Source of the DNA: a virus
Lineage: Duplodnaviria; Heunggongvirae; Uroviricota; Caudoviricetes
IMG/VR virus record: IMGVR_UViG_3300025602_000002
Coordinates: 102,718 to 166,717 of that record
Direction: 5' to 3' (one strand)
DNA: 64,000 nucleotides
The notes under the pieces were generated by a model. The model saw only the letters and a program-made list of their open reading frames with translations. It made no database searches and was not told the DNA's origin. The translations under genes and the position numbers were made by a program. This document shows, piece by piece, positions 9,951-37,769 of this stretch. Numbering within the stretch: position 1 is the stretch's first letter; each line of letters begins with the position of its first letter.

Positions 9951-10023
9951 TGGGCCCTGCTGGACTCGAACCAGCATCCTACACATTATGAGTGTGTTGC
10001 TCAGCCAATTGAGCTAAAGGCCC
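9951..10023 (-). tRNA. tRNA-Met(CAT), elongator or Ile2-type
   Basis: Acceptor GGGCCTT/AGGGCCC, anticodon stem ACACA/TGTGT with loop CTCATAA, T-loop TTCGAGT. Confidence 0.75.
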
Positions 10024-10116: not shown

Positions 10117-10210
10117 GTAAAGAGCGACGCGATACTTTTTTCTGCAGTTATTATATTGCGCGCTCCCATCTCCTTCTGCTCTTACACGCAAGCGATGGCA
10201 GATGAGTCTG

Positions 10211-10282
10211 TGGCGAAAGATGGAATCGAACCACCGTCGCGTGGATCTTCAATCCACCGCTCTACCCCTGAGCTACCCCGCC
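10211..10282 (-). tRNA. tRNA-Phe(GAA)
   Basis: Anticodon stem GTGGA/TCCAC with loop TTGAAGA, T-loop TTCGATT. The acceptor stem has three G-U pairs. The 5' end overlaps the stop of CDS 10273..10776. Confidence 0.55.
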
Positions 10283-10776: not shown

Positions 10777-11133
10777 TTATTCAATTCCTTCTTCTTTTTT
10801 CCATTTCTGGTAACGTTCAACTCTTTCCAAATATATCTCATACTCGGCTCGAGTTCCGCCTTTGCACCCTCCGTGACCGTCTGATCTGATCTGCCAACCA
10901 ACAAAGGCATAATGATCCTTGCATTTAGCTTCATATTTCGCTAATTCGTCTTCTTCAATAGGAAAAAAGTCATAAATTTCTGTTAAACGTTTAAAGGTGT
11001 AGTTGTCATGAGCGTTTGCTCTTGTGCCGTCTGAATATTTTATAGGTTTATAGCTTCTATAGCAATTGTTTGATTCGTCTAATTCCCATATATAGGAATC
11101 GTCTGGCCTGACTATATATTTTGGATTTTTCAT
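10777..11133 (-). CDS. Hypothetical protein
   Basis: ORF of 118 aa, same frame as and adjacent to the HAD phosphatase. Confidence 0.4.
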   Translation of the reverse strand: MKNPKYIVRPDDSYIWELDESNNCYRSYKPIKYSDGTRANAHDNYTFKRLTEIYDFFPIEEDELAKYEAKCKDHYAFVGWQIRSDGHGGCKGGTRAEYEIYLERVERYQKWKKEEGIE

Positions 11134-11153
11134 TTTTTAGTTCCTAAGTTAAT

Positions 11154-11242
11154 TGGGGTGTCGGACGGGATTTGAACCCGCATGAGGAGCAACTCCAACT
11201 CGGGTCACAGCCGAGTGCATTACCAAATCTGCCACCGACAAC
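11154..11242 (-). tRNA. tRNA-His(GTG) with an encoded G-1 and a long variable arm
   Basis: Anticodon stem CTCGG/CCGAG with loop CTGTGAC. The extra 5' G pairs with discriminator C73, which is the His identity element. CCA is encoded. The 17-nt variable arm and a U1-C72 mismatch are unusual. Confidence 0.5.
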
Positions 11243-11243
11243 G

Positions 11244-11327
11244 GGCTGATGGTAGGATTCGAACCTACGTGGACTTTCGTCACCTGATTACAAATCAGGA
11301 CCTTTCGACCGCTCAGGTAACACCAGC
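11244..11327 (-). tRNA. tRNA with anticodon TGT (Thr-like) and class-II-like long variable arm
   Basis: Acceptor GCTGGTG/CATCAGC, anticodon stem CCTGA/TCAGG with loop TTTGTAA, T-arm GTAGG-TTCGAAT-CCTAC. The architecture is atypical. Confidence 0.45.
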
Positions 11328-11337
11328 TCTATTTAAA

Positions 11338-11362
11338 AGTGGGGACGCTTGGCCCCCACGTA
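11338..11362 (-). terminator. Rho-independent terminator downstream of the NAMPT gene
   Basis: Hairpin GTGGGG-ACGCTTG-GCCCCCAC followed on the minus strand by TTTTAAATAG. Confidence 0.5.
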
Positions 11363-11363
11363 T

Positions 11364-12509
11364 TTAAACCTTTAATATTTGTTTACATAACGCAATCTCG
11401 TCTGGATCGCCTGTATGTTTTCCCGGGGAATCTGACAACTTAATAGCTGGTTCCCATACATCATTTAATTTAACAGCGTTAATTTTGATTACCATATTCA
11501 ATGGTGTAACGTCTGTATCATTAGTGAAGTTGGTACCAATTCCGTAAGCCGTTTTAATGTGCTTATTCACTTCTTTTTCGATGTGTACCGCTTTTTCGAG
11601 ATTTAAACTGTCTGAAAAGATTATTAATTTACTTTTCGGATCAATGTTTAAATGCTCATAGTGGTTAATAATTTTGTTAGCAAACACAAGCGGGTCCCCA
11701 CTGTCTTGCCTCACACCGTCAAATAGTTTAGAATACTTCATGGCAAATTCTTTAAGAAAAACGTCTGTAGTAAAGGTATCTGGTAAAGCTGTTCCCAGAC
11801 TTCCTTGAAACACTTCTACCCATTTCTCTAATACCATAGTAGTTGCCATCTTGTAACCGTATAGGCGTGATAAGACCATATATACTTCGTGAGCTTGTGT
11901 ACCTGTTGGGGTTAAATTATATTTTTTGGCAAAATGAACATTAGAGGTTCCTACCAATCCATGCTTTAAAATATTAAGAGTTTTATCATGTACGTCATAA
12001 GAGTGCCTTCGTCTAGTTCCGAAGTCGGCTACGCTTAAATGATTATCGTGTATAATTCTCAATTTTTCTATATTCTGTTTTTCTAACTCATACAGCGGGC
12101 TTAATTCCCCATTAGACATCTCTGAAATAATAGCCATAATAGGTACTTCCCACAGTATAGTCCTATACCAGGGACCTCTAATACATATCTCAAATTGATG
12201 TTGTTTACCGGGTTCATAAATTACTTCTACTTCAGAAGAGTCATACGCATACCCTTTTAAAAAGTCCCTATACACGGGAGTGAAATAATAACATTTCTTT
12301 TTTAAAAAAGTTGCTTCTGAATCAGTTAACCGTAGTGATCCCATTGCGTTAATATTGCTTATCAATTTTGTAGCAAACGAGTCACTAAACTCAACTGGAG
12401 TTCTCAATATCCACTTGTATTCTACTTCCAGGTTTGGAAATTGCTGACAAACAAACATTTGTTGTGTAAATTTATATATGTCGTTATCTAAAATTGAATT
12501 AATTAACAT
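11364..12509 (-). CDS. nadV: Nicotinamide phosphoribosyltransferase (NAMPT/NadV-like)
   Basis: 381 aa, consistent with NadV homologs (call from family-level resemblance, no specific motif cited). Part of the NAD salvage cluster. Confidence 0.8.
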   Translation of the reverse strand: MLINSILDNDIYKFTQQMFVCQQFPNLEVEYKWILRTPVEFSDSFATKLISNINAMGSLRLTDSEATFLKKKCYYFTPVYRDFLKGYAYDSSEVEVIYEPGKQHQFEICIRGPWYRTILWEVPIMAIISEMSNGELSPLYELEKQNIEKLRIIHDNHLSVADFGTRRRHSYDVHDKTLNILKHGLVGTSNVHFAKKYNLTPTGTQAHEVYMVLSRLYGYKMATTMVLEKWVEVFQGSLGTALPDTFTTDVFLKEFAMKYSKLFDGVRQDSGDPLVFANKIINHYEHLNIDPKSKLIIFSDSLNLEKAVHIEKEVNKHIKTAYGIGTNFTNDTDVTPLNMVIKINAVKLNDVWEPAIKLSDSPGKHTGDPDEIALCKQILKV

Positions 12510-12802
12510 TATTTGGTATCCTTTCCAGAGTGTATTGTACGTAATACGGTTAGGCTGGAAGAACCGTCAACCACCTCTATTATACAACGCTCGATAGCAT
12601 AGTCTTTCAATAAAAAGTGTCTTTCTGCTATCTTTCTCCAACCGTAGTTATCGTATCCTTGAACGTCTATTTTAGTGGGACTAACTTTAGTTATTGCCCA
12701 CCTACGTTGTGTCCAGTATGACGGAATGTGGTCTTCGCCAGTACTAGCTCGTACCGTTATAACGTCATCTACTTTTAATTTAAACATCTGTTTCCTCTCC
12801 AT
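12509..12802 (-). CDS. Hypothetical protein
   Basis: ORF of 97 aa; its stop overlaps the nadV start (ATGA overlap). Confidence 0.4.
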   Translation of the reverse strand: MERKQMFKLKVDDVITVRASTGEDHIPSYWTQRRWAITKVSPTKIDVQGYDNYGWRKIAERHFLLKDYAIERCIIEVVDGSSSLTVLRTIHSGKDTK

Positions 12803-12940
12803 TAAGTTTATCGAGTTTTCTACAAATTTGTAATAGAAGTATATCTGTAAGGGTTAGTCTGCCATTTCCAAATTTGGTTTCCAAAATAAGTTGTAAATCC
12901 TCATCTATGGTAGCTTCTAAAGGTAGTATAACCTCACTCA

Positions 12941-13276
12941 TTAATAAACCTTCTCGAGTATTTCCCAACGTGCCTCGGGAATATTAATTACTTGAACTAT
13001 TTCGCCATTGACAAAAAAAGTTAGTTTGTTGTCACCTATTGACACACGATCCGCTAAGTATTCTTTGTCATATTTAATATTATAAGCTTTGTCATAAACT
13101 GTAAGAGTATAGGTAGTTCTAGAATCATTTCCATAACCTAATTCTGTTTTCGTACCATTCGCATCTATAACACCAGAATTAAAAAGCTTTGGTATTGCCA
13201 CTGAGCCTATAATCCCTGCAATTACTAGAACAATAATTAGTTCTATTATTGTAAATCCTTTTTTACTTCCATTCAT
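12941..13276 (-). CDS. Type IV pilin-like (prepilin N-terminus) protein
   Basis: N-terminus MNGSKKGFTIIELIIVLVIAGIIGSVAIP matches the class III signal (G|FTLIE). Confidence 0.4.
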   Translation of the reverse strand: MNGSKKGFTIIELIIVLVIAGIIGSVAIPKLFNSGVIDANGTKTELGYGNDSRTTYTLTVYDKAYNIKYDKEYLADRVSIGDNKLTFFVNGEIVQVINIPEARWEILEKVY

Positions 13277-13724
13277 TTTCTTTTAGTTCCTTTCTTACTT
13301 TCATTAATGCTTTTCCTAAAAGGTTTGTACCTTTACCATTTTTTCCGATGCCCCATATTGCGTCGTTCCATTCAGCCGCGTCTTCTATTAATTCTGCATC
13401 TTGTGTACATAGTAAAATCTTTTTGTAAAGATCTATTTTGAATTTTTCTCTTAAGCACATAACCATAATGTCATATTTTACTTCTTCCCAATCTGGGCGA
13501 AGATTTACTTTATTACCCGCACGTTTAGATTTGCCAGGGGTTTTTAACTGTGCTATTTCTTTACGTATTGTGTTATTAAATGTTTTATGTGCTTGAAACG
13601 CATGCTCTACTGTTGGATATTCAATACCTTCTATAGTAATAGGGGAATGTGCAAAATTAGAAAAATATTGATCATAGCCTGATGGCTTCTTTGCGGAGAA
13701 AATTATTTGGTTTGTGTTTTTCAT
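13263..13724 (-). CDS. NADAR-domain (YbiA-like) protein
   Basis: Motif FSNFAHSPITIEGIEYPTVEHAFQAHKT resembles the NADAR/DUF1768 core. Confidence 0.45.
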   Translation of the reverse strand: MKNTNQIIFSAKKPSGYDQYFSNFAHSPITIEGIEYPTVEHAFQAHKTFNNTIRKEIAQLKTPGKSKRAGNKVNLRPDWEEVKYDIMVMCLREKFKIDLYKKILLCTQDAELIEDAAEWNDAIWGIGKNGKGTNLLGKALMKVRKELKENEWK

Positions 13725-13754
13725 TTGTTAGTTTGATTTTTATTATTTAAAAGT

Positions 13755-13838
13755 GTGGGCAGAGAAGGATTCGAACCTCCGAACCCCGTAGGGACCAGAT
13801 CTACAATCTGGCGCTTTTGACCGCTCGGCCAGCTGCCC
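13755..13838 (-). tRNA. tRNA-Tyr(GTA), class II
   Basis: Anticodon stem CCAGA/TCTGG with loop TTGTAGA, variable stem CCC/GGG, T-loop TTCGAAT, acceptor GGGCAGC/TCTGCCC. Confidence 0.65.
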
Positions 13839-13845
13839 AACTTAA

Positions 13846-14553
13846 TTATCGTTCTCTTCCATGGTAGTCGTTCGGATATAAATCTTCTGATAAGTCTGAT
13901 TGCCAGTACTCATGCGTATTTACATCCATGATAGTAAGTTTTCCTTCCCAACCTGATCCGGTGTCTAACATCCATAGATTGGAAATATTTAAAGGTTTAT
14001 CCGTTCCAAACATTCCTGTAGTTGTATGCCCAACGAATACCTCTTTATAATCTTTAAATTCACGCTTTTGAGTTACGTAAATTTTTGCCACTTCAATGAT
14101 GTGACGATTCCAATACAAATTATACGGATCCTGATCCCGGATAGGGACCTTTTGATCGAATCCTCCGTGTACGTAGATTTTGTTCTCATCATCGATGTGG
14201 TAAAATACTGTTTTGTTACGTAGATAATGTAGGTGCTTAGTTCTCCATTCTAGTGGGGCTGACACGTAGCTGGCAATTGTAGCCATACCACCTTGTCTAG
14301 TCCACAATGAGGGAGTTTGTCCATATTCTAACCACCCAAGTAGCCATACGTCGTGATTACCTATAACCTATATTAAATTCTTAATCTTTAAAAGTTCTTC
14401 GAAACACTTTGCCGTATCTGGCCACCCGTCATTTATATCGCCAAGAAAGACTAATGTATCCTCCTCATAATTGAAGTTAGAACGTTCGAAACATTGGAGC
14501 ATGCCCTGGTAATTACCATGTACGTCTCCCAGTACAAATATTTTATTTTTCAT
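13846..14553 (-). CDS. Calcineurin-like Ser/Thr phosphatase (PPP family) interrupted by one in-frame TAG at 14368-14370
   Basis: Track ORFs 14368..14553 and 13846..14307 share a frame. The translation reads ...GDVHGN...GDINDGW...KIKNLI-TAG-VIGNHDVWLLGWLEYG...HGGF. The PPP phosphoesterase motifs continue straight across the stop. Confidence 0.6.
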
Positions 14554-14789
14554 CCTTCATCCTTTGTAATGTGGTTTATACAGGCAGCTATTCTACTATC
14601 CTGGTAAAATGGATCCATTGCTGTAGCTCTAATCTCTTCTGCTACTTCCGGATAAAGTATATAAAGTGCATTAAAAATACATTGCCCACGTCTCCAGAGG
14701 GGGTTGTTTAGTCCCATTTTATTTGTTGTTTGAAAGAGGGTTTTCATTTCCTCTTGAGTTAATTTATTCATTACCAACGTCTCCCGCAC
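14550..14789 (-). CDS. Hypothetical protein
   Basis: 79 aa; its TGA stop overlaps the ATG of the phosphatase (ATGA overlap). Confidence 0.4.
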   Translation of the reverse strand: MRETLVMNKLTQEEMKTLFQTTNKMGLNNPLWRRGQCIFNALYILYPEVAEEIRATAMDPFYQDSRIAACINHITKDEG

Positions 14790-15019
14790 TCACACTCCCA
14801 GCGTCCTTTATAAACTTTGGTTGCTAATAGTCCGCAACTATGGCATGTCATTTTTGGGGCTATACGGGTATTTATTCCGAATAGTACTCCTTTTAAAAAG
14901 GTGTCAATTACTTGGAAAAGCCCGGTAGTAATTTTATCTTTAGTTTCTTGTTTCATAATTATTTCTCTTTTTTTTCTGTAGCACGAGTGGGCGTCGAACC
15001 CACCTTCCCAGGTTTCCAA
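14771..15019 (-). CDS. Small zinc-ribbon protein
   Basis: CHSCG...CECGRRW. Confidence 0.35.
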   Translation of the reverse strand: METWEGGFDAHSCYRKKREIIMKQETKDKITTGLFQVIDTFLKGVLFGINTRIAPKMTCHSCGLLATKVYKGRWECECGRRW

Positions 15020-15051
15020 AACCCAAGAGCCTCGCCCCCGGTCACCGCACT
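14979..15051 (-). tRNA. tRNA-like element, possibly Pro(TGG)
   Basis: T-arm GTGGG-TTCGACG-CCCAC. The acceptor stem AGTGCGG/TCGTGCT needs three G-U pairs. The anticodon region TGGGT-TTTGGAA-ACCTG is poorly paired. Confidence 0.3.
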
Positions 15052-15063
15052 AAACCTATTTAG

Positions 15064-15300
15064 CTACCTAACTTTCCTAGCTACCGCTATTATTTCATGT
15101 ACAAATACATCTCCCAATTCATAGCTGCCATAAGTATAGGGAGACTTAACTCCGCAAAACCATCTAGCGCCTTCTTTGTTATCATCTATTTGCCATTTTT
15201 TTAAAACTTTCCATTCCCAAGACTGATCTAAAGTTCTCCATATTTCATATGGGTTGTCAAGAGGTCTGGTCTTTCCACATAAATTCTTCTGTCTTGTCAT
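15064..15300 (-). CDS. Hypothetical protein
   Basis: Track ORF trimmed to the internal Met (MTRQKN...) because the upstream part overlaps tRNA-Glu. TAG stop. Confidence 0.35.
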   Translation of the reverse strand: MTRQKNLCGKTRPLDNPYEIWRTLDQSWEWKVLKKWQIDDNKEGARWFCGVKSPYTYGSYELGDVFVHEIIAVARKVR

Positions 15301-15326
15301 TTTATTTTTCTGGTTTGTTACCTTCG

Positions 15327-15398
15327 TAGCGCATAGGAGAATCGAACTCCTGTACCCAGACTGAAAACCTGGTGTCCTAGCCATTAGACGAATGCGCC
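15327..15398 (-). tRNA. tRNA-Glu(TTC)
   Basis: Acceptor GGCGCAT/ATGCGCT, anticodon stem CCAGG/TCTGG with loop TTTTCAG, T-arm AGGAG-TTCGATT-CTCCT. Confidence 0.55.
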
Positions 15399-15410
15399 GT
15401 TATTAATGAG

Positions 15411-15484
15411 TGGAGAAGAGGGGATTTGAACCCCTGACCCTCTGCGTGCAAAGCAGTTGCTCTCCCAGACTGAGCTACAACCCC
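15411..15484 (-). tRNA. tRNA-Ala(TGC)
   Basis: GCTTTGCACGCAG anticodon arm and canonical D-arm as in bacterial tRNA-Ala. The G3-U70 identity pair is present. There are T-T mismatches at positions 5-68 and 6-67. Confidence 0.6.
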
Positions 15485-15490
15485 ATTAAT

Positions 15491-15727
15491 TTATTCTGTT
15501 TGTTCTGTTGCTTGTTTTTCTTCTTCTGCCATGACTACTTCTGATTCGGCCCATGAAAGTATTAAAAGATACCACACGATTCCACAAATGGCATAACAAG
15601 CTAGTCCATATGTTTTTGCCCATCCGGCTTTCTTTGTATACTTTGGCATTAGCGACATTACTAGGAACATAGTTCCAAGCCCAAATATAATTCCCACTGG
15701 TATGAGAAGTACTATAATTCCCATCAT
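15491..15727 (-). CDS. Small membrane protein
   Basis: Two transmembrane helices. Confidence 0.4.
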   Translation of the reverse strand: MMGIIVLLIPVGIIFGLGTMFLVMSLMPKYTKKAGWAKTYGLACYAICGIVWYLLILSWAESEVVMAEEEKQATEQTE

Positions 15728-15752
15728 AACGTTGTCCTTTCTTTTTATTTCG

Positions 15753-15825
15753 CAGAGCGCACGGGGATCGAACCCGCAGTCTCCGGCGTGACAGGCCGGC
15801 GTGTTACCATTAACACTTCCACCCT
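15753..15825 (-). tRNA. tRNA-Asp(GTC)-like
   Basis: Anticodon stem CCGGC/GCCGG with loop CTGTCAC, T-arm GCGGG-TTCGATC-CCCGT and discriminator G as in tRNA-Asp. The 5' strand GGGTGGA does not pair with the 3' strand GCGCTCT, so it may be a pseudogene or I may have misplaced an end. Confidence 0.4.
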
Positions 15826-15834
15826 ATAAATTAG

Positions 15835-15906
15835 AGCCTAGGGAAGGAGTTGAACCTCCATTTCTCTTAGCGGACTAAGAGCGTCTTACCATTAGACGAC
15901 CACGGC
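15835..15906 (-). tRNA. tRNA-like element with an 18-nt anticodon arm (possible 8-nt anticodon loop)
   Basis: D-arm CGTC-TAATGGTAA-GACG and T-arm GGAGG-TTCAACT-CCTTC. The anticodon arm CTCTT-AGTCCGCT-AAGAG is one nt longer than canonical. The acceptor stem has two central mismatches. Confidence 0.35.
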
Positions 15907-15908
15907 GT

Positions 15909-15981
15909 TGGTTGGGGGTGTGGGATTTGAACCCACATTCGCCTGCCTCTGCAGACGTCCTTTACGTTGGATGAGCCCCCA
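15909..15981 (-). tRNA. tRNA-like element with encoded CCA and a tetraloop in place of the anticodon loop
   Basis: Perfect T-arm GTGGG-TTCAAAT-CCCAC and an ACCCCCA-A-CCA 3' end. The central arm is TCTGC-AGAG-GCAGG with only a 4-nt loop. Confidence 0.3.
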
Positions 15982-16018
15982 TTAATTTTTTCTCTCTATG
16001 TCAAAAAACTAGAATCTT

Positions 16019-16258
16019 CTATAGAAGGTTCTTTTGTTTTAAAATACGATTTACATGTAGTTTTGTAATTACAGGCTGTTTATTTTGACTAGCCATATGT
16101 AACGCAATTTTAACCTCTTTACCTTTGTGCCCTGGTTTGCTTGTTGCAAATTTTACAATTCGTCTTGCTATGTTCATTTCCCGTGTTTCACGCCCCAGGT
16201 ATCGTTGGCATTTTATTTTGTCTCTACCCTGTTTGTTAGAGTTTGATTTTTGTGACAT
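16019..16258 (-). CDS. Small basic protein
   Basis: 79 aa, rich in Lys/Arg. Confidence 0.35.
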   Translation of the reverse strand: MSQKSNSNKQGRDKIKCQRYLGRETREMNIARRIVKFATSKPGHKGKEVKIALHMASQNKQPVITKLHVNRILKQKNLL

Positions 16259-16267
16259 TAGCTTTCC

Positions 16268-16663
16268 TTATTTTTTAAATCTTTTTTCCAATTGTTTATA
16301 AAGCTCAAAATCGTCTTTTTCTTTCTTATTCTTCCGTCTTGTCGCGTTTCGCTTTCTAGTTATTTCAGATTTTTTTGCTCTATCTTTTAATACATTCGTT
16401 CTAATAGTAAATTCCTCATCCGTCTCTTTTCGACTCACGCTAACCTCTAATTCGTCGAGCTCTATCCTATCGTCCCACGAGTTGAACTGGCTACAAACTG
16501 CGGTAAACCTCACATCTGGGTTGTCTACCCCTGTCTGTTGTCTAGAAAGAGCTATGATGTGCCTTAGTACCTCTTGTACGTCTTCAAGTTTTCCTTCTAG
16601 ATCATCATAATCATACGGGTGTGCTATTATTATTTTAACTGTTTTCTTTTCATAACTTGCCAT
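16268..16663 (-). CDS. Hypothetical protein
   Basis: 131 aa with a basic C-terminal tail. Confidence 0.4.
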   Translation of the reverse strand: MASYEKKTVKIIIAHPYDYDDLEGKLEDVQEVLRHIIALSRQQTGVDNPDVRFTAVCSQFNSWDDRIELDELEVSVSRKETDEEFTIRTNVLKDRAKKSEITRKRNATRRKNKKEKDDFELYKQLEKRFKK

Positions 16664-16685
16664 TGTTTTTTATTGGTTTTATTTG

Positions 16686-16756
16686 AGCAACTAGAGAGAA
16701 TCGAACTCTCATCGTCTGAGTGGAAGTCAGAAGTCTTACCGTTGGACCATAGCCGC
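16686..16756 (-). tRNA. tRNA-Gly(TCC)
   Basis: Acceptor GCGGCTA/TAGTTGC, anticodon stem TCTGA/TCAGA with loop CTTCCAC, T-arm GAGAG-TTCGATT-CTCTC. Confidence 0.65.
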
Positions 16757-17083
16757 TTTAATTGGTAAAGCTGTGACAATTTCATTAGTTTTCTTATCAT
16801 ATACTACTTTGTATCTAATGCTATTTTGCTCAATAATCATAACTAACCTGTGTCCTACTTTTTCTAGAACGCTTACTCCTTGGTCGTTATACTCGTTCCT
16901 AATTCTATTCAATAATTCTTTTCTTAGCTTTTTGGTCAACGTAATATCATAACGCTCTTCAAATCTTTTTACAGCGTGTTGTCGTTGATTGTGTTTATAA
17001 CTCATGTTGCCCTTTCTATTTATTTGAGCAGCTAGACGGATTTGAACCGACATTCCAACCATGGCAAGGTTGTGTCCTACCAT
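16757..17083 (-). CDS. Hypothetical protein
   Basis: Track ORF 16736..17083 trimmed because its end overlaps tRNA-Gly. Confidence 0.35.
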
Positions 17084-17097
17084 TAGACGATAGCCGC
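17027..17097 (-). tRNA. tRNA-Gly(GCC)
   Basis: Acceptor GCGGCTA/TAGCTGC, anticodon stem CAACC/GGTTG with loop TTGCCAT, T-loop TTCAAAT. Confidence 0.65.
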
Positions 17098-17098: not shown

Positions 17099-17776
17099 TT
17101 ACCAAGAAACTTTTCTTATTTTTAATAGAAAATCATTTACTAATTTTGAGTTAGCTTCTTTTTTTGTAGACTTATTAAACGCGTCTTCTAGTTTTTCTTC
17201 CCAAGAGCTACAAGTTTTTATAACCTCTGGTATAGTAGATTCGCCTTCCTTATATTTTCTGCAAAGAATGCCTACTTCTGTATCAGCTATTCTGGCTGTA
17301 AAATCGCCAGTTTGTAATAGTTCGTATCCATTATATAACATTCTTAACCAGGCCGCTGATGATTTTCTTTTTCTAATGGTATCTAATTCTACATTTCCAT
17401 TACTAAGGGCTTCATCATTTTCTAAAAGCTTTTTGCGTTGCGATTGAGCATAACCCCTGTACGAGTGGAAAACTAATTTAGAACTCCAAACGTCTGGAAA
17501 TAGACTTCTTAACTCTTCACACCAGTTCTCGTTTTCTGTAGTAAATGTCGCTTTAAAAGTTTCCAGAATTGTAGGATTACTTCTTAATGCGAAATGTAGA
17601 AATCTAGCTAATTCCCAGGTATCTGCTGGATCCTTTGGATCGCTGGGCTGGTGCTCTGGTAAAGCTAAAATATTTGAAGTAGTCTCAATAAATACAGTTT
17701 TATAATCGAAATCACTTATAGGAGTATCTAACCCATGCAATCTACTTCCTACTAACGCTCTCATTAATAATCTCAT
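17099..17776 (-). CDS. Pol-beta-superfamily nucleotidyltransferase
   Basis: GS-x-D-x-D motif GSRLHGLDTPISDFDY near the N-terminus. Confidence 0.45.
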   Translation of the reverse strand: MRLLMRALVGSRLHGLDTPISDFDYKTVFIETTSNILALPEHQPSDPKDPADTWELARFLHFALRSNPTILETFKATFTTENENWCEELRSLFPDVWSSKLVFHSYRGYAQSQRKKLLENDEALSNGNVELDTIRKRKSSAAWLRMLYNGYELLQTGDFTARIADTEVGILCRKYKEGESTIPEVIKTCSSWEEKLEDAFNKSTKKEANSKLVNDFLLKIRKVSW

Positions 17777-22609: not shown

Positions 22610-23524
22610 TTAGAAGTTTCCGTAGTTTACTTGGAAACATTGTAGACCTAAGTCTTTACGCCATAGACCAACTACTTGGTCTCTATCATCAAACACGCAA
22701 AATACGTTGTATTTATCTTTAACGTGTTCATCATAAAGTTTGCGTTTAAGAATTGAATCTCTTATATTATGCTCAAACAATGGTCTCATGAACATCTTCC
22801 AATGAGGAAACGGAAGGTTTGCTTTCAAAAACTGTCTAGTTTCTGAAAGGTATTTTTCCGATCTTCCAGATAAAAAGATTATTTGGTATCCCTGTTTGTC
22901 CATAACGTGAAGAATTTCCCCCAAAATCGCATTGTAAGTATCGTTCTCACAAGTAGAGGCGTCATAAGGGTTACGGCCTTTAAGGAATGCCATCGTGCCG
23001 TCTAAGTCACAAATGATTGCCTTAGGTAAGCCGTCTACCAACTCAACCGTGCCTGGAGGCTCAGGATAGTCGTGAGGCTCATCTTTCTTTAGAAACCTAC
23101 TGTACATATCATAAATAACTTTAGAGCCTACATGGGCCGATCCTGTACGTAATGCGTCTCGATCAATGGCATCAAATACATCTGTAGGGAATTCTCTAAC
23201 CACAACTAATACGTCGTGCTTAACTTCCCGTAAAATGTTATAGTCCGCCACTATTTTTCTAATATGCTCCTCATTTGAGCTGTGTAAGTTTGTATCATCT
23301 ACGAATACTGATCTTCCGGCATCTAAGTATCTAAAGATTAAAGAGTCTCTAATTGCTTTAATTATTTTCTCATTTCCTTTAGAGTATACTCCACCATCAA
23401 CCATGCTTCGTAGACTATCCCTATTTACACGTTTGTATGTATCTGGCATTTTATCCATCATATCTACGGCATACGAAGTCTTACCGCTTGCGGGTAACCC
23501 CCGTAGTATTATTACTTGTCTCAT
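22610..23524 (-). CDS. pseT: Polynucleotide 5'-kinase / 3'-phosphatase (T4 Pnk-like)
   Basis: Walker A GLPASGKTSYA and a C-terminal HAD motif IICDLDGTM. Confidence 0.8.
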   Translation of the reverse strand: MRQVIILRGLPASGKTSYAVDMMDKMPDTYKRVNRDSLRSMVDGGVYSKGNEKIIKAIRDSLIFRYLDAGRSVFVDDTNLHSSNEEHIRKIVADYNILREVKHDVLVVVREFPTDVFDAIDRDALRTGSAHVGSKVIYDMYSRFLKKDEPHDYPEPPGTVELVDGLPKAIICDLDGTMAFLKGRNPYDASTCENDTYNAILGEILHVMDKQGYQIIFLSGRSEKYLSETRQFLKANLPFPHWKMFMRPLFEHNIRDSILKRKLYDEHVKDKYNVFCVFDDRDQVVGLWRKDLGLQCFQVNYGNF

Positions 23525-23548
23525 TTTGTATTTCCTTTTATTTATGGC

Positions 23549-23932
23549 TTAGTCTCTATCCCATAACTTTATAGAACTCTCCGCCGTACTCTGGGCGTGT
23601 TTGTACTCAACGTCAGAGTATTGGTATAAAGATGCTTTCCACATATCTTTATTTCGTGCAAATTGTTCAAGATGCTCGGGAGCTATCACTTCTGTTATTG
23701 ACAAACAGTTTCCAGCTGATTCACCTAACTGTGAACTATGTACGCGAGTATTTACATACAAAGTGTCAGAGTCAAAGTCTAACCAGTCGAAAGAGCGCCC
23801 CTCACCCTTTGGAATGAATTTAGTATTTTTGAGTTGGCATATCTCTAACACTGAAGGCTCATATAACCCAGGAAGCACCATTAATACTATATCGCCATCT
23901 TTCAGTGTTTTTAAAAGCTGGTTACTTTTCAT
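23549..23932 (-). CDS. Hypothetical protein
   Basis: 127 aa, between Pnk and the RNA ligase. Confidence 0.4.
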   Translation of the reverse strand: MKSNQLLKTLKDGDIVLMVLPGLYEPSVLEICQLKNTKFIPKGEGRSFDWLDFDSDTLYVNTRVHSSQLGESAGNCLSITEVIAPEHLEQFARNKDMWKASLYQYSDVEYKHAQSTAESSIKLWDRD

Positions 23933-24997
23933 TTATTCTCCAAACTTAATTAAGAAGTCAGGGTTAATTACTTTAAAACTAAAGCTACCATCTCTCGCTC
24001 TAATCACAATTCCCTCTCTTGGGATATCAGGATTTAGAAGGCTTGGGCCTTTAGAAAGCTCTACTAATTCGTCTACTGTATGGTTTAACACCATCTTTGG
24101 ATTAAGGACAGGTACAGTATTAAATATTCTATCTAACCCTCGTACGCGAACTTCCCCCTCAGTTGTGTAGTCCCCAAATATAAGATTTAGAAAGCTCTCA
24201 ATACTTCCAAAGCCACCATCTTGTATAGTAAAAGCGTTAAACATTTTTACTTCTGTAGCAGACAATTTGTATTTATTTTTCTGAATCCCTGGCCCCAGTA
24301 ATTCTCCTTGGAAAATTACATTTATACCAAGTTTAGACATTTTCTCTTCTGCGTCAATATCTCTAGCGACTTTCCAGAAAGAATTTTTGTCATTCTCTAT
24401 TAGGTCAAGCTTCCGACTGCATACTCCGAAAGGTGTTGCTTTTCGGTAGTTAGGTGCATAATAAAAGGTAGATGACGATCCATCTAATTTCTCTGTTATG
24501 TAGCACTCTGTTCCTGCCCATTCTTTTATTTCATCTACAAGATTCTGTACACGTTCTTCATCCGTCTTAGGAATCCAGGAAGGTCTGTGGCCTTTAATCT
24601 GGCCACTTAAGCATGCTGGAATGGGTGCTTCATATTTTACTACTTTCAAAAGTTCACTTACGTCTGTTCCCACTTCGGGGCCATCGGCGAGCTCTTCGAA
24701 AGTATCTAATGGCATGGCTAGCCCTTGACTAATTTGCTTACGCAATTTTATAGTTCGTAAGCGATAACCTCTTGTGCCGTCATCTATTGTTTTGACACCG
24801 TTTTTCTTTAAGAATTCAAACGGCTCTATTTCTGGCAACAAAGAGTCCACTTCAAAGTAGACGCATTTATCACCTATTTGAAATTCCCCCTTCTTAACTA
24901 CTAGATGCCAGCCTTTTACAGTTGCTTTTTCAATTACATCTGCTCCAGAGATAGGCTCTAAATTAGCTATGAGTTGGATTGTTGCTAAATGTCTCAT
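23933..24997 (-). CDS. ATP-dependent RNA ligase
   Basis: Nucleotidyltransferase motif I ITEKLDGSS (KxDG); 354 aa; sits next to the Pnk gene. Confidence 0.65.
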   Translation of the reverse strand: MRHLATIQLIANLEPISGADVIEKATVKGWHLVVKKGEFQIGDKCVYFEVDSLLPEIEPFEFLKKNGVKTIDDGTRGYRLRTIKLRKQISQGLAMPLDTFEELADGPEVGTDVSELLKVVKYEAPIPACLSGQIKGHRPSWIPKTDEERVQNLVDEIKEWAGTECYITEKLDGSSSTFYYAPNYRKATPFGVCSRKLDLIENDKNSFWKVARDIDAEEKMSKLGINVIFQGELLGPGIQKNKYKLSATEVKMFNAFTIQDGGFGSIESFLNLIFGDYTTEGEVRVRGLDRIFNTVPVLNPKMVLNHTVDELVELSKGPSLLNPDIPREGIVIRARDGSFSFKVINPDFLIKFGE

Positions 24998-24998
24998 T

Positions 24999-25520
24999 TT
25001 ATAATTTCCATTCTTGTTTTAAAAAGTTTATTCTGGCTGTTATACTTTTATAATATTGCCAACCTGCTGGAGACTCCCAGCGATTGCCCGCCCTGTAGGA
25101 TCTTACAGTTTTGGACCAGCTACCATTATGTCTCTCATTCTTCCAATAGGTTAGTTCAGTTATTGCTTCTCTACAACTAAGTATGTGACTATCTATGAGC
25201 CATTGGGCCACTACATTCCTATTAAAGGGTGTGTCCTCTATCTCATCTCTATGTCTACTCATATATGTGTTGATATTGATATGGTGAGCTCCTGCGGAAG
25301 GGTCTTGCAAATTTACAAGGTATTTACCTCCTGCAGATTCTTGCCACTCAATAGCAGCTAATGTCCACCCTAAATCAAAGGGCACCCCATATTCATAGGA
25401 TGCCCGTATTGATTCTTGTTGATGGCTTGTTAAAGCTTTCCATTCCTCAGGTAAGGCTCCAACGCATAAACATATATTTGTGAGTAGTATTAGTAAATAT
25501 CTAATCGAGCCAACTTGCAA
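24999..25520 (-). CDS. Hypothetical secreted protein, possibly lytic transglycosylase-like
   Basis: Signal-peptide-like N-terminus. The EWQESAGG motif weakly resembles an SLT domain. Confidence 0.25.
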   Translation of the reverse strand: MQVGSIRYLLILLTNICLCVGALPEEWKALTSHQQESIRASYEYGVPFDLGWTLAAIEWQESAGGKYLVNLQDPSAGAHHININTYMSRHRDEIEDTPFNRNVVAQWLIDSHILSCREAITELTYWKNERHNGSWSKTVRSYRAGNRWESPAGWQYYKSITARINFLKQEWKL

Positions 25521-25701
25521 TTGCAGCTATACCGCCTACAGCTAAAAATAATAAGACGAAGCCAAGCCACAGCGGGGCAGTTATCCACCACCAACTCCAT
25601 GTAATGACTCCAACTAACTTTAGGACAAGTAATACTATAAATAGTATGAATCCGGGATTTTTCATTTTTTCTCCGTTTGTTTTGGTTTTAAATATTTCCA
25701 A
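25501..25701 (-). CDS. Small membrane protein
   Basis: Two transmembrane helices, TAG stop. Confidence 0.35.
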   Translation of the reverse strand: MEIFKTKTNGEKMKNPGFILFIVLLVLKLVGVITWSWWWITAPLWLGFVLLFLAVGGIAAIASWLD

Positions 25702-26735
25702 ATTAAGGGCTTTATGTTTTTCCCTTGTAACATTGTAAATACTAAAGAAATTATTTGTTTATTTCCAATATTTATGACTTTTTCTGCTACTGCTTTGGAA
25801 GTTCGTTTTTTCATATCAATTGATTCTGGGAAACTAGTTATAAGGTGCATGTATTGTTTACAAGCAGTGTTTGCTAATATCACATAATTCTCTCTAAAGT
25901 TATCTATAGAGGTATGAAGCCATTTATAGTATTCATCTGGTACAATATCAATTAACTCTTGTATATCTAATTCTGGATCTGATAAGTATTTCCATACCGT
26001 TTTATCATTGCAAAGCTGCAATATACGGTGATGTCTTACATACCAGTCAAATTTTACTTTAACTCTGAACCCGTTATCATATGCTAACACAAATCCTTCT
26101 TTGTTTTCTTGATTTGGTACATTATATAACTCACTTACATCGCAATCATGTTCATATAGCTCTGTTCTTGGTATACAAGTAGTAACAGCGTGCAACCCTA
26201 TCTCTCTGCCAGTAAACGTATCGCGTACTGCCAATAGCCTTAGGTCGCTCTCTGGGTAGGTGATACAGGTCATCCCCCCTTTCTTAAGAGTAGGTGTTAA
26301 GAACTCATAGCAGTATGTGAAGTCCTCCCTTATAGTAAGGTCAGGGTATTTTTCTTCTAAGACTACATTGGCCTCTGTAATATATTCATTATCAAAAGAG
26401 CCTCTTGTAGATTTAATTAAATGCCCCCTCCACATAACCATTATAAATAGACATCCGTCTAGTTTATTAAAAATGCTGTAGTGGTCATCTGGGAGCTCGA
26501 TACCTAGTCCTTCTAATTCTGTATAGTTGAAAAATTTTCTAAAAGGGTTGGCTACTACAGTTCCATATTCATCTAGTATAAGACCCCTACATCTAGTAGT
26601 GGTATCGTTCCAATTTCGAGCATACTGTGTGGCATGGGTATAATTATATATCCAAAGTGGAAACTCTGGATGTTTTCTTCGCTTTACCCACCCTTCCTTT
26701 ATTTGGGTTTCTAAAACTGTTAGGACTGTATTCAT
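25662..26735 (-). CDS. Second RNA ligase (Rnl2-like family)
   Basis: KxDG motif FNKLDGCLFIM; 357 aa. Confidence 0.5.
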   Translation of the reverse strand: MNTVLTVLETQIKEGWVKRRKHPEFPLWIYNYTHATQYARNWNDTTTRCRGLILDEYGTVVANPFRKFFNYTELEGLGIELPDDHYSIFNKLDGCLFIMVMWRGHLIKSTRGSFDNEYITEANVVLEEKYPDLTIREDFTYCYEFLTPTLKKGGMTCITYPESDLRLLAVRDTFTGREIGLHAVTTCIPRTELYEHDCDVSELYNVPNQENKEGFVLAYDNGFRVKVKFDWYVRHHRILQLCNDKTVWKYLSDPELDIQELIDIVPDEYYKWLHTSIDNFRENYVILANTACKQYMHLITSFPESIDMKKRTSKAVAEKVINIGNKQIISLVFTMLQGKNIKPLIWKYLKPKQTEKK

Positions 26736-27765: not shown

Positions 27766-27800
27766 AAAGAAAAACGGGGCCGAAACCCCGTTTATATATT
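27766..27800. terminator. Bidirectional rho-independent terminator
   Basis: Hairpin ACGGGG-CCGAAA-CCCCGT flanked by an A-run and a T-run. It lies immediately 3' of CDS 27799..28650 on the minus strand. Confidence 0.65.
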
Positions 27801-30073: not shown

Positions 30074-30092
30074 AGGTTTCCTTTTTTGATTG

Positions 30093-30165
30093 CTGTAACG
30101 ACGAGACTCGAACTCGCAACCACTGCATTAACAGTGCAGCGCTCCACCAATTGAGCTACGTTACA
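30093..30165 (-). tRNA. tRNA-Asn(GTT)
   Basis: Perfect acceptor TGTAACG/CGTTACA, D-arm GCTC-AATTGGTG-GAGC, anticodon stem CTGCA/TGCAG with loop CTGTTAA, T-arm GCGAG-TTCGAGT-CTCGT. Confidence 0.75.
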
Positions 30166-30176
30166 GATTTAATTTA

Positions 30177-30428
30177 TTAGGTCATTTTTGGATAATCAAT
30201 GGAAGAGGCGTGATACTTACCAGCTAAAACATCCAGTTTTTCCATTTCAAAGCTTACTTTTAATACTTGATGAACTGGATAATAACTCATAATTCCATTT
30301 TCAACGTTACGCCATCCTTCTGTTATTATTCTATGTGCATGCTCTCGAGCCACTGCTGAATCACTTACTTCATACTTGAATACTCTTCCGTCTTGCATAT
30401 ACACATTTATTGTAATTGACTTTTTCAT
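30177..30428 (-). CDS. Hypothetical protein
   Basis: ORF of 83 aa, downstream of tRNA-Asn. Confidence 0.35.
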   Translation of the reverse strand: MKKSITINVYMQDGRVFKYEVSDSAVAREHAHRIITEGWRNVENGIMSYYPVHQVLKVSFEMEKLDVLAGKYHASSIDYPKMT

Positions 30429-30657
30429 TTTATCTTTTATTGGTTGATTTTGCTAAATAAGCCTCTTCATCTTCTTTCCAGTTTCCTGTAAGCTCTGGAT
30501 AAATTTCAAAAAACATTCCTGAATTTAATAGTTTATCATAACCTTCTCGAAGATTATCCATTAACTCTTCATATCTTTTGGCAACAGCGTCATCTACTGT
30601 ATGCTCATGATTATAAACAATTATTTTTTTTCATTTGGTTCCTTTTTAATGGGGGCG

Positions 30658-30728
30658 TGAAGGCGGTAGGAATCGAACCTACGTCGGCGGCTTAAAGGGC
30701 CGCTGCTAAACCACTCAGCTACGCCTCC
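30658..30728 (-). tRNA. tRNA-Lys(TTT)-like
   Basis: Acceptor GGAGGCG/CGCCTTC, anticodon stem GCGGC/GCCGC with loop CCTTTAA (C at position 33), T-arm GTAGG-TTCGATT-CCTAC. Confidence 0.45.
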
Positions 30729-30814
30729 ACAGTTTTTATATTATGAGTGTTAATATTAATAGTAGTGCTACAAAATGTAGGAACTGGTCAAAACCTATAG
30801 TATTAAACATAAAC

Positions 30815-31129
30815 CTAATTTTGTTTAAAGCAAATGCTTTTTTTTACTATTCTACTAGTAACAGCGTCTATCCATAAATGTGACATAAATAATAAAGACC
30901 AGCATAGCGCTGCATTTCCTAATGAAATAGTTATTATTGTGCCAAGAGAGGGCGCTAGCATTATAAACGCCGTCAATACAGTGGCATATACTACACAATG
31001 TAAAATTAGAATGCCCCAGTGTTCATGTTTTTTTGAAGCCATTTCCTGTGTTTGAAACAAGAAATCTGCTACCCAATGAACTAGCAATACAACTAGTATT
31101 ATGTGAACTGTAAATGTTGTAGTTAACAT
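30815..31129 (-). CDS. Membrane protein
   Basis: Four predicted transmembrane helices. Confidence 0.4.
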   Translation of the reverse strand: MLTTTFTVHIILVVLLVHWVADFLFQTQEMASKKHEHWGILILHCVVYATVLTAFIMLAPSLGTIITISLGNAALCWSLLFMSHLWIDAVTSRIVKKSICFKQN

Positions 31130-31410
31130 TAGCAGCCTTTATAGTGGGAATCGTAACGTTCTATAAACGCGGCTAACCACCCTGCTAATAAAAGGCAGCC
31201 CGCTATCGTAATAGGAGTACTAGGTAGTATAATTCCTCCAGCTATTACAAATACTCCTGTCAAGAAGTTCAGTAGTAATCTTAATGCTCCGAAAAATTTA
31301 AAATTCATTTTGTGTTCCTTATTATTTTTATTAATTAAAATACTTATCGTAAGTATTGAGGGATGAGTCGGATTCGAACCGACACAGTCCAGGGTTGCAG
31401 CCTGTCGCAT
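31129..31410 (-). CDS. Small membrane protein
   Basis: Two transmembrane helices. The N-terminal part of the ORF overlaps tRNA-Cys and the true start is probably internal. Confidence 0.3.
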   Translation of the reverse strand: MRQAATLDCVGSNPTHPSILTISILINKNNKEHKMNFKFFGALRLLLNFLTGVFVIAGGIILPSTPITIAGCLLLAGWLAAFIERYDSHYKGC

Positions 31411-31433
31411 TAACCAATTTTGCTTACCATCCC
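31359..31433 (-). tRNA. tRNA-Cys(GCA)
   Basis: Acceptor GGGATGG/TCATCCC, anticodon loop CTGCAAC, T-arm GTCGG-TTCGAAT-CCGAC. Confidence 0.5.
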
Positions 31434-33599: not shown

Positions 33600-34127
33600 C
33601 TACTCCTTATCTAAATATCCCGGAAGGTTATAAGTCTTTATTAATTTTAGAAACGCTTCCAAATTACCCATAGCGTCATCGATAGAGCTATGTGTATGAG
33701 GAGTATCTCTCAGGTGTTTGAAGTTTTCAAAAGGAGTTTGAACCAACCCTTTAAAAAGACTTCCTAGGTTTGCACTTGAGTGCCCAAAGGGATTTATCCC
33801 TAAGTACTTATGACAGTAATAATTTATGAACTGCCAATCATGCCCATTGTTATCAGATATAAACATCGGCCTTCCTTTTGAAGTTTCTTTTACAAACTCT
33901 GCTAAAGTTTTTATAGCTTCTTCAGGATCTCCGTATCCAAGAGTTTCTTCCCTAGTTACCCCTATCTTTTCTAAAGCTTCAGGTTTCCATAGGTTAGTAA
34001 TAGGCCTTAGGCGCTCGTGGACGGACTCGTCCTTCGCTTCCGTGACCCTTATTGCTGCAAACTCTACCATAGAGAATATTCCAGGGCATTCCCCGTCAGA
34101 CTCTATGTCTATCATGAAATAACTCAT
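33600..34127 (-). CDS. DEDD-family 3'-5' exonuclease
   Basis: Exo I motif MIDIESDG and Exo III motif HSSIDDAMG. Confidence 0.6.
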   Translation of the reverse strand: MSYFMIDIESDGECPGIFSMVEFAAIRVTEAKDESVHERLRPITNLWKPEALEKIGVTREETLGYGDPEEAIKTLAEFVKETSKGRPMFISDNNGHDWQFINYYCHKYLGINPFGHSSANLGSLFKGLVQTPFENFKHLRDTPHTHSSIDDAMGNLEAFLKLIKTYNLPGYLDKE

Positions 34128-37049: not shown

Positions 37050-37769
37050 TTAATTATTTTCTATTAAATATACATGTTTTTCAATGTAATCTTTACCCCT
37101 AGCTGAGGCAAACACTGGGATATTCATATCTGGGTGGTTATTGTCTATACAGTACCCTTGTCGTCTTAAACTAGAGAAGTCATCAAAATTAATTCCTATC
37201 TTTTTGGATAGAAGATGTTTTATATTCTCAACACTTCTCATGTGAAGTTCTTTCTGAGAGAAATGCTCTCTTCCTACCATCTGGACAGCGTTGCGTATAG
37301 CATCTTGTTGTCTCCAGATATAATAGTTTGTCACTTCATCTTTTGCCAAATTAAAAGCTCTAGCATCAAACTGCACTTTTTCGCCAGTTATTGAATAAAA
37401 GTTAGTGCTTACGATAGCTGCTGTAATTGATACTATTTTCTGTATGGAATTATTGAACCACGACTGTGTGTTATGAGTTTTATAATCCGTTAATAAAAAA
37501 CTGATCTCATCAGATTGACCATAGCAAAACTTTGTTGACTGCATATCTTCCATAGAAGCCCTAGCAGTTTCCATCATATTTGCAGAGAATCCGGTAGACC
37601 ATCCTCTTCCATATAATTTTCTTGTAAGAGTGTGAAACGCTCTACCGTCTACTCTTATTATTACTGGCATTCTTTTGTGAAGCTTGTATTTATAGGTAGC
37701 TTCATAATCTTTCATACGATCACCTAGTGGGGTTCCGTCTCCCATATTATTTAGTCTCCTCTTTTTCAT
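37050..37769 (-). CDS. tRNA-His guanylyltransferase (Thg1)-like protein
   Basis: Thg1 signature motifs IIRVDGRAFH, YGQSDEISF and WRQQDAIRNA. Confidence 0.8.
   Translation of the reverse strand: MKKRRLNNMGDGTPLGDRMKDYEATYKYKLHKRMPVIIRVDGRAFHTLTRKLYGRGWSTGFSANMMETARASMEDMQSTKFCYGQSDEISFLLTDYKTHNTQSWFNNSIQKIVSITAAIVSTNFYSITGEKVQFDARAFNLAKDEVTNYYIWRQQDAIRNAVQMVGREHFSQKELHMRSVENIKHLLSKKIGINFDDFSSLRRQGYCIDNNHPDMNIPVFASARGKDYIEKHVYLIENN

Follow-up and report, generated by a model that had tools for sequence, protein, structure and literature searches.

Does a compact set of RNA-end-processing genes in an uncultured phage amount to a pathway for the repair of broken tRNAs, and does it go beyond the one known from phage T4? 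The question is raised by a 64,000-nucleotide stretch of the Caudoviricetes record IMGVR_UViG_3300025602_000002 (positions 102,718 to 166,717), here called the window, in which positions 22,610 to 26,735 encode a polynucleotide kinase-phosphatase (Pnkp) and two RNA ligases. An original prediction, made without database searches, had described a T4-like kinase with two distinct ligases and, together with enzymes encoded elsewhere in the window, a capacity for tRNA end-healing and sealing broader than the T4 model. The open reading frames (ORFs) that it named are all present, with the same boundaries and on the minus strand, and their matches to known families are far beyond chance. We consider it likely that the locus serves a huge uncultured phage for the repair of RNA breaks (mainly in tRNA) and the replacement of tRNAs, following the T4 pathway as extended in jumbo phages. 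It belongs to a type already described in T4 and in jumbo phages, and is an expected result of annotation, not a new system.

Predicted healing and sealing enzymes

The first gene of the cluster encodes a T4-type bifunctional Pnkp by the features of both its domains, predicted to act both as 5'-kinase and as 3'-phosphatase (Table 1). The protein matched the whole of the Pfam profile HAD_PNKP (positions 1-143 of 143, 3e-42), AAA_33 (4.6e-10) and phrog_505, 'polynucleotide kinase' (2.6e-74), and it aligned at full length with two PDB entries, Capnocytophaga Pnkp1 (4xrp, 7.5e-42) and T4 Pnk (1ltq, 3.5e-27), all of which bears out the original assignment of kinase and phosphatase. As the signature of the kinase we took an N-terminal GxxxxGK[ST] motif, a catalytic Asp and RNA-end-binding Arg residues (K15, D35, R38 and R126 in T4). 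The N-terminal domain contains the P-loop GLPASGKT (G9-T16), D36, R39 and R122/R126, and in an alignment with 14 relatives G9, G14, K15, D36, R122 and R126 were invariant. The C-terminal DxDxT acylphosphatase (HAD) domain has D173-L-D175-G-T177, S219-G220-R221, K260 and D279-D280, which were invariant in the same alignment save for S219. An identical protein is deposited at NCBI as 'MAG: AAA family ATPase [Candidatus Scalindua sp.]', where MAG stands for metagenome-assembled genome; this record is probably a phage contig binned into a bacterial genome, with the protein under-annotated. A search of IMG/VR with the single Pnkp sequence gave no close relatives, and relatives were obtained with an alignment-based query. 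The nearest Pnkp relatives overall are chromosomal, from Flavobacterium and other Bacteroidota, at 45-47% identity.

The two ligases are distinct from each other, as originally proposed. The one closer to Pnkp carries the Pfam PHA02142 OB domain (PF21189) at residues 4-97 (2.2e-35) and RNA_ligase (PF09414) at residues 164-344 (2.8e-18), the protein ending at residue 354. Its residues 2-351 were collinear with residues 5-336 of the 340 in Naegleria NgrRnl (5cot, 6.5e-68). R149, K170 (KLDG), D172, E232, E328 and K342 stand in register with the NgrRnl motifs (ERVQNL, KLDGSS, QGE, REG and FSFK in the alignment); we take these residues, from the NgrRnl literature, to be the Lys nucleophile and those that bind metal and ATP. 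An N-terminal OB domain and the absence of a C-terminal domain are the signature of the Rnl5 family, to which we assign the protein, with a predicted nick-sealing specificity. It is thus neither a DNA ligase nor a capping enzyme, as its matches to PF09414 and NgrRnl indicate. Rnl2 could also be ruled out, since in that family the nucleotidyltransferase domain is followed by a C-terminal domain and no OB domain precedes it; the T4 Rnl2 chain was absent from the PDB matches at E <= 0.01. An identical protein occurs on many metagenome contigs, up to the 0.2-1 Mb class in length, with the gene order unchanged.

The other ligase belongs to the Rnl1 family, as judged from Pfam RNA_lig_T4_1 (PF09511, 1.3e-11), phrog_562 (1.8e-52) and T4 Rnl1 itself (2c5u, 1e-14). 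Its K91-L-D-G, E144, E213-G214 and K226/K228 align to K99, E159, E227-G228 and K240/K242 of T4 Rnl1, and the N-terminal elements specific to Rnl1 are also kept, with R49 (CRG) and K67-F-F69 (RKFFN) corresponding to T4 R54 and K75/F77 (CRG, EKFFN). In T4 Rnl1, tRNA specificity is conferred by the C-terminal helical domain. The phmmer alignment to T4 Rnl1 ended at residue 285 of the window protein, and its last ~70 residues align with Rnl1 proteins of Flavobacterium and of actinophage-like origin. Over its full length, the ligase is 32% identical to a Flavobacterium Rnl1 whose gene adjoins one for Pnkp. Judged by their predicted protein sequences, Pnkp and both ligases retain intact catalytic motifs and no gene looks degraded; the heal-and-seal kit is probably functional.

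These genes lie in a co-directional string on the minus strand, in the order AAA ATPase (26739-27755), Rnl1, o66, o173, Rnl5, o127 and Pnkp. Adjacent genes either overlap or have at most 24 nt between them (3, 1, 0 and 24 nt at the non-overlapping junctions), and the Rnl5 gene has gaps of only 0-1 nt to both immediate neighbours. A terminator-like hairpin just ahead of the AAA ATPase gene is the probable upstream boundary of the string; the only other strong intergenic hairpin on the minus strand hereabouts lies at 17837-17812, just upstream of the gene discussed next.

That gene encodes a nucleotidyltransferase 4.8 kb from Pnkp, on the same strand. The original prediction had named it as a Pol-beta enzyme, and it proved to be the RNA-repair-linked RlaP (RNA-ligase-associated Pol-beta nucleotidyltransferase), not an MNT enzyme of the antibiotic-resistance or Abi type: it matched PF10127 with 8.2e-22 (78.5 bits against a cutoff of 23) and phrog_388 with 9.8e-26. 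The Pfam match spans only positions 19-169 of the 249 in the profile. Members of this family are recognized by the Pol-beta motif G[SG]...DxD with a catalytic carboxylate at a third position (PfRlaP has three conserved Asp) and by a C-terminal helical domain that forms an RNA cleft. In the window protein, G10-S11, D22-x-D24, N67, E72 and R145 were invariant in an alignment with nine relatives. The third carboxylate is likely E55 (WEL), a Glu in the phage relatives and an Asp (WDL) in a Flavobacterium homologue. Over the last ~65 residues, conservation extends only to the closest viral relative (45% identity), whose gene directly abuts one for Pnkp. RlaP adds one or two NMP onto the 3'-OH of damaged RNA and, in a proposed role, would put back the nucleotides that 'smart' ribotoxins such as RloC had taken out, ahead of ligation (PMC12776372).

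Further candidate genes are scattered through the window. The Thg1-like enzyme (named without coordinates), the SpoU-class methyltransferase and the DEDD exonuclease of the original prediction were all recognized by Pfam. The methyltransferase had weak NCBIfam matches, below threshold, to TrmJ, RlmB and TrmL, and the PHROG family of the exonuclease is labelled 'DNA polymerase exonuclease subunit'. We found no evidence that ties either of these two to RNA repair; the exonuclease lies 7 kb from the cluster, past two SPFH genes, and the methyltransferase 17 kb away. The roughly 20 tRNA genes that had been predicted are 23 by ARAGORN and 22 by Rfam at its gathering score, all on the minus strand. 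A gene for a 'Swiss-army-knife' HAD (SAK-HAD) phosphatase, a family listed among the RNA-end phosphatases of jumbo phages (PMC7824862), was not among the parts originally named.

Table 1. Features of the window discussed in the text (positions counted from the first nucleotide of the window)
Feature	Position	Strand	Details
SpoU/TrmH-class 2'-O-methyltransferase	4720..5271	-	Pfam SpoU_methylase 1.6e-17
tRNA gene array	236..17097	-	20 tRNA genes with ORFs interspersed; ARAGORN, Rfam
SAK-HAD phosphatase (HAD_SAK_2)	10273..10776	-	167 aa; Pfam PF18143 5.7e-26; DIDGV motif
RlaP	17099..17776	-	225 aa; PF10127
T4-type bifunctional Pnkp (activities predicted)	22610..23524	-	304 aa
o127	23549..23932	-	127 aa; abuts stop codon of Rnl5 gene
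Rnl5-family nick-sealing RNA ligase (predicted)	23933..24997	-	354 aa; Pfam and NgrRnl match
o173, homologue of T4 Vs.1	24999..25520	-	phrog_600 2.4e-34
o66, small predicted membrane protein	25501..25701	-	54-66 aa, hydrophobic; 54-aa gene in metagenome record
Rnl1-family RNA ligase	25662..26735	-	357 aa; Pfam, PHROG and T4 Rnl1 match
Terminator-like hairpin	27772..27793	-	9-bp stem, 5 GC pairs, T-rich tail; just upstream of AAA ATPase gene
tRNA genes Asn(GUU), Lys(UUU), Cys(GCA)	30092..31433	-	ARAGORN, Rfam
DEDD (RNase T/DnaQ-type) 3'-5' exonuclease	33600..34127	-	Pfam RNase_T 8.5e-8; phrog_192 6.7e-10
Thg1-like 3'-5' nucleotidyltransferase	37050..37769	-	239 aa; Pfam Thg1 6.1e-23; phrog_4717 8e-68

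Recurrence of the gene set and comparison with known systems

To see how regularly these genes occur together, we fetched 80 viral loci with Pnkp relatives, 71 of which encode a full-length Pnkp, and scanned them with the window proteins in flanks of up to 10 kb. Among the 71, a relative of Rnl1 was found nearby in 31, a relative of RlaP in 11 and an Rnl5-like ligase in 3; a single locus had both Rnl1 and the Rnl5-like ligase, with Pnkp and the two ligases all within 8 kb of each other. When the search was started from Rnl5 instead, the Rnl5, Rnl1 and Pnkp genes were contiguous in 1 of 14 viral loci, an unrelated high-GC contig. From these counts we conclude that Pnkp and Rnl1, with or without RlaP, form the canonical set. 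Rnl5 is not generally tied to Pnkp, since 13 of the 14 viral Rnl5 loci had neither Pnkp nor Rnl1 in the fetched flank, and its addition to a Pnkp-Rnl1 cluster is uncommon yet recurrent. In cultured phages, Rnl5 homologues were found within a tRNA array (a Microbacterium phage) and near NrdC.11/RlaP (Sinorhizobium phage phiM19). On Bacteroidota chromosomes, the order is an Rnl1-type ligase and then Pnkp, with Ro60/TROVE and a WYL regulator adjacent and RlaP not far off. As a separate observation, four phage-like metagenome contigs (L113-L116) show another kind of RNA-repair neighbourhood, with an Rnl2-like PF09414 ligase, an R2K ATP-grasp protein, a homologue of o127, a stand-alone AAA_33 kinase and a long RlaP (374-377 aa); Rnl1 is present in two of them, L115 and L116.

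The phage itself has no close cultured relative as far as its sequence indicates, and a megablast search of INPHARED with the module gave no match. For two further window proteins described below, o283 and o287, the homologues are confined to Lak Prevotella megaphages and other 'huge phages' of 460-735 kb, apart from a few metagenome contigs for o283 and one short faecal phage contig for o287, and we therefore take the source to be a huge phage. A Bacteroidota host is plausible.

In the scheme that we favour, host RNases would leave termini that carry a 2',3'-cyclic phosphate or a 5'-OH. The HAD domain of Pnkp, with Asp173 as nucleophile, would remove the cyclic or 3' phosphate, and its P-loop kinase domain would phosphorylate the 5'-OH; healing of 2',3'-cyclic phosphate ends is described for the T4 Pnkp phosphatase (PMC3592404). 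If a nucleotide had been excised as well, as by RloC-type enzymes, RlaP would add one or two nucleotides to the 3'-OH. The Rnl1-type ligase (Lys91-AMP) would then seal breaks in anticodon loops, and the Rnl5-type ligase (Lys170-AMP) would seal 3'-OH(RNA)/5'-PO4 nicks in duplex contexts, the role ascribed to Rnl2 in T4. The SAK-HAD phosphatase and the Thg1-like enzyme would probably tidy other 3' and 5' ends, and the 22-23 phage tRNAs would replace those beyond repair. From what is known of the enzyme families we infer which substrates are used, in what order the steps run and that they serve counter-defence.

T4 has Pnkp (pseT), Rnl1 (gp63), Rnl2 (gp24.1) and NrdC.11, a member of the PF10127/RlaP family (PMC12776372). 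The window resembles it in the architecture and catalytic residues of Pnkp, in an Rnl1 with the Rnl1-specific N-terminal residues, and in the presence of a second nick-sealing ligase, an RlaP nucleotidyltransferase and phage-encoded tRNAs. The sole architectural difference is that the second ligase is Rnl5, with its N-terminal OB domain, in place of Rnl2, with its C-terminal domain. T4 Rnl2 is itself a nick-sealing enzyme whose specificity in vitro matches that of Rnl5 enzymes (PMC5397189). There are other differences: the window Pnkp is nearer by sequence to Bacteroidota Pnkp1 than to T4 Pnkp, its RlaP is short, the SAK-HAD phosphatase and the Thg1-like enzyme are added, and 22-23 tRNA genes are present, compared with 8 in T4. 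The individual enzymes were thus correctly named in the original prediction, and the breadth that it claimed relative to T4 was overstated.

Nor is what exceeds T4 new in combination. A survey of jumbo phages (Iyer, Anantharaman, Krishnan, Burroughs, Aravind 2021, Viruses 13:63; PMC7824862) had already listed large tRNA arrays, ATP-dependent ligases in any combination, PNK-HAD, stand-alone SAK-HAD, RlaP mirroring the ligases and sporadic Thg1, and essentially every component of the window appears there. That survey names the families Rnl1 and Rnl2 without singling out the Rnl5 type with its N-terminal OB domain, which the window has, and the phage of the window appears to fall within a TAG-recoding group of huge phages.

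The operons of Bacteroidota share with the window the closest Pnkp relatives, an Rnl1-type neighbour and an RlaP nearby; what the window has in addition is the Rnl5 ligase and tRNA genes. None of Ro60/TROVE, a WYL regulator or Hen1 turned up among the ~40 window ORFs scanned with Pfam. We also considered the Pnkp1-Rnl-Hen1 system and rejected it: there is no Hen1-type match, the sole methyltransferase found is of the SpoU class and lies 17 kb away, and neither window ligase matched the 4xrp or 4xru chains in the PDB search, their matches being T4 Rnl1 and NgrRnl. With Deinococcus DraRnl and with NgrRnl, the Rnl5-type ligase shares its two-domain architecture and motif residues, and it aligned with NgrRnl end to end. 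Unlike these characterized members, which have no established RNA-repair partner (PMC5397189), it is encoded beside Pnkp and Rnl1. The locus is of interest in two respects: it extends the heal-and-seal logic of T4, with RlaP, SAK-HAD, Thg1 and a large tRNA set, to an uncultured and apparently TAG-recoding huge phage, and, with Rnl5 lying between Pnkp and Rnl1, it provides a natural test bed for the in vivo role of Rnl5-type nick-sealing ligases.

Alternative roles for the ligases and the cluster

Several observations weigh against assigning the whole locus to tRNA repair. The genes for RlaP, SAK-HAD, Thg1, SpoU and the DEDD exonuclease are 5-17 kb from the cluster in an accessory arm dense with genes, where closeness counts for little. 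The 4.1-kb cluster is itself mixed, with o173 and the small membrane protein interleaving the RNA-repair genes. Most viral Rnl5 loci, as said above, have neither Pnkp nor Rnl1 in their flanks, and the only genetic evidence on an Rnl5 enzyme, which concerns DraRnl, suggests that it acts after DNA damage (PMC5397189).

The last two points bear on a rival explanation that we regard as rather unlikely, namely that the Rnl5-type ligase works outside tRNA repair, in phage replication or repair, on duplexes with an RNA 3'-OH such as RNA-primed DNA or RNA:DNA hybrids, and is a chance neighbour of Pnkp and Rnl1. Rnl5 enzymes need a duplex nick with an RNA 3'-OH strand and accept DNA elsewhere, and deletion of DraRnl sensitized Deinococcus to ionizing radiation and delayed the reassembly of its genome (PMC5397189). 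What speaks against a chance neighbour is the position of the gene, wedged between Pnkp and Rnl1 with almost no intergenic space, as well as the contiguous trio in the unrelated high-GC contig (L009), the clustered trio in L089, and the homologues that stand in a tRNA array or near NrdC.11/RlaP in cultured phages.

At the other end of the range, Rnl5 might, in this megaphage lineage, serve the Pnkp pathway specifically as its second sealing enzyme, with Rnl1 sealing loop breaks, Rnl5 sealing nicks in stems or duplexes, and the SH3-like o127 family, which recurs near PF09414 ligases, acting as an accessory that binds RNA or the enzymes. We hold this stronger version to be doubtful. A place for Rnl5 in the Pnkp pathway, if real, would be the first RNA-repair context for a family whose physiology has been called 'uncharted'. 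The protein o127 had no family assignment by Pfam or PHROG, and is a possible candidate for an accessory factor.

A less probable alternative, to which we give little credence, is that the enzymes mature the phage's own odd tRNAs, by joining exons, processing atypical genes, adding G-1 to tRNA-His or 2'-O-methylation, and have no part in counter-defence. The window does encode atypical tRNAs, among them Thr(UGU) with 85 nt, His(GUG) with 88 nt and one whose anticodon arm is aberrant. For Lak megaphages, which share the o283 family, tRNAs with introns have been reported, Thr(TGT) among them (bioRxiv 10.1101/356790), and healing and sealing enzymes of this chemistry serve in fungal tRNA splicing (PMC6379707). 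The atypical tRNAs nevertheless fold as complete cloverleaves with a long variable arm and are not obviously split, no splicing endonuclease was found among the window ORFs scanned, and sets of Pnkp, Rnl1 and RlaP occur in many phages and bacteria without such tRNAs.

That the genes share the locus only incidentally, each with a role of its own (Rnl1, for instance, in tail-fibre attachment, a function reported for T4 gp63), is very improbable, even with the PHROG label 'RNA ligase and tail fiber protein attachment catalyst' for the Rnl1 family, unrelated genes interleaved in the cluster, and an accessory arm in which genes for NAD salvage, kinase/phosphatase, SPFH and other functions form a mosaic, because the adjacency of Pnkp and Rnl1 in the 31 viral loci and on Bacteroidota chromosomes is far above what mosaicism would lead one to expect and the Rnl1-type ligase keeps all catalytic residues for ligation. 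We thus retain tRNA break repair with tRNA replacement as the most satisfactory account of the locus.

Neighbouring genes, atypical tRNAs and in-frame TAG codons

Some of the proteins encoded in or beside the cluster were considered as repair factors and set aside. The o173 protein has SLT-like motifs and a hydrophobic N-terminus and had no Pfam match, RegB and SLT included. Its tblastn matches are to the gene between regB and vs in T4-like phages, which is variously labelled hypothetical, SLT-domain or 'endoribonuclease'. We rejected a repair role suggested by the 'endoribonuclease/RegB' labels, as the gene corresponds to T4 vs.1, the neighbour of regB; in record OK274152 the RegB label is attached to five neighbouring genes, and the 'endoribonuclease' labels look like annotation spill-over from regB. 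The AAA ATPase at the head of the string is a generic classical AAA protein and was not counted as part of the module; it had no relatives in the 80 Pnkp loci and is unlike the AAA gene found near an o283 homologue.

The 283-aa protein o283 (27799-28650, minus strand) has a conserved beta-sandwich at the N-terminus and a zinc ribbon at the C-terminus, along with a low-complexity linker and an ETGRIxKG motif, and some homologues have a SHOCT domain. Its AlphaFold2 (AF2) model was weak (pLDDT 57) and gave generic Ig-like matches, none with E <= 0.001. The gene adjoins Rnl1 in one viral locus (L086) and is near Pnkp in another (L105). Its linkage to repair genes is inconsistent, as nothing of the kind is seen in the loci of Lak or other huge phages and its metagenome contexts are mixed.

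On the other side of the cluster, o287 (21692-22555, minus strand) adjoins Pnkp. It has nicotinamidase-like motifs and weak PDB matches to nicotinamidases (E 0.0095-0.75), with no Pfam match even at E <= 10, and may be a divergent nicotinamidase, which we note as a lead. Directly downstream of Pnkp and o287, the segment 18301-21661 (minus strand) encodes a vWA-like protein with a MIDAS-like DITGS...TDG motif and a marginal Pfam vWA-TerF match, a PP2C phosphatase (5.3e-13) and a 563-aa protein with a weak protein-kinase match (2.2e-4). The minus strand also encodes a near-complete Preiss-Handler route to NAD+, with NAPRTase (11364-12509), NadD-like (7304-7840), NadE (8433-9224) and Nudix (7840-8433) genes, accompanied by a NADAR domain protein (positions given for the set: 7304-12509, 13263-13724 and 21692-22555). 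NAD+ salvage, Nudix and NADAR genes are found in the same jumbo-phage genomes as the RNA-repair kit (PMC7824862). Two adjacent SPFH/Band-7 genes (31511-33396, minus strand; 3.5e-28 and 6.3e-23) separate the tRNA-Cys gene from the DEDD exonuclease. A PADLOC scan of ten neighbouring ORFs without assignment returned nothing meaningful.

Two of the tRNA genes, both on the minus strand, encode a long variable arm, a feature that bacteria normally reserve for the tRNAs of Leu, Ser and Tyr: tRNA-Thr(UGU) of 85 nt (11243-11327) and tRNA-His(GUG) of 88 nt (11154-11241). In the latter, a G at position -1 (11242) faces C73, there is a U-C mismatch at 1:72, and the CCA is encoded. A tRNA-like gene at 15834-15906 (minus strand) has an 18-nt anticodon arm, readable as a 7-bp stem with a 4-nt loop or as 5 bp with an 8-nt loop; ARAGORN reports it as 'tRNA-??? 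(cc)' and Rfam as a tRNA with 38.3 bits; a decoy, a frameshift-type tRNA and a pseudogene are all conceivable.

A gene for a lambda-phosphatase/NinI-like metallophosphoesterase (13846-14550, minus strand; GDVHG...GDxxDG...GNHD) is split by a single in-frame TAG at 14368-14370, right before GNHD. With this TAG read as Gln, the Pfam Metallophos match spans the junction (residues 3-176, 5.3e-11). An amber suppressor tRNA(CUA) is encoded at 2676-2752 (minus strand). Taken together with the kinship to Lak and other huge phages, the in-frame TAG and this tRNA suggest TAG recoding or read-through as in Lak megaphages. Further same-frame TAG junctions were seen at 34134-34136, between a 98-aa ORF and the DEDD exonuclease, and at 56068-56070; the RNA-repair genes stop with TAA or TGA.

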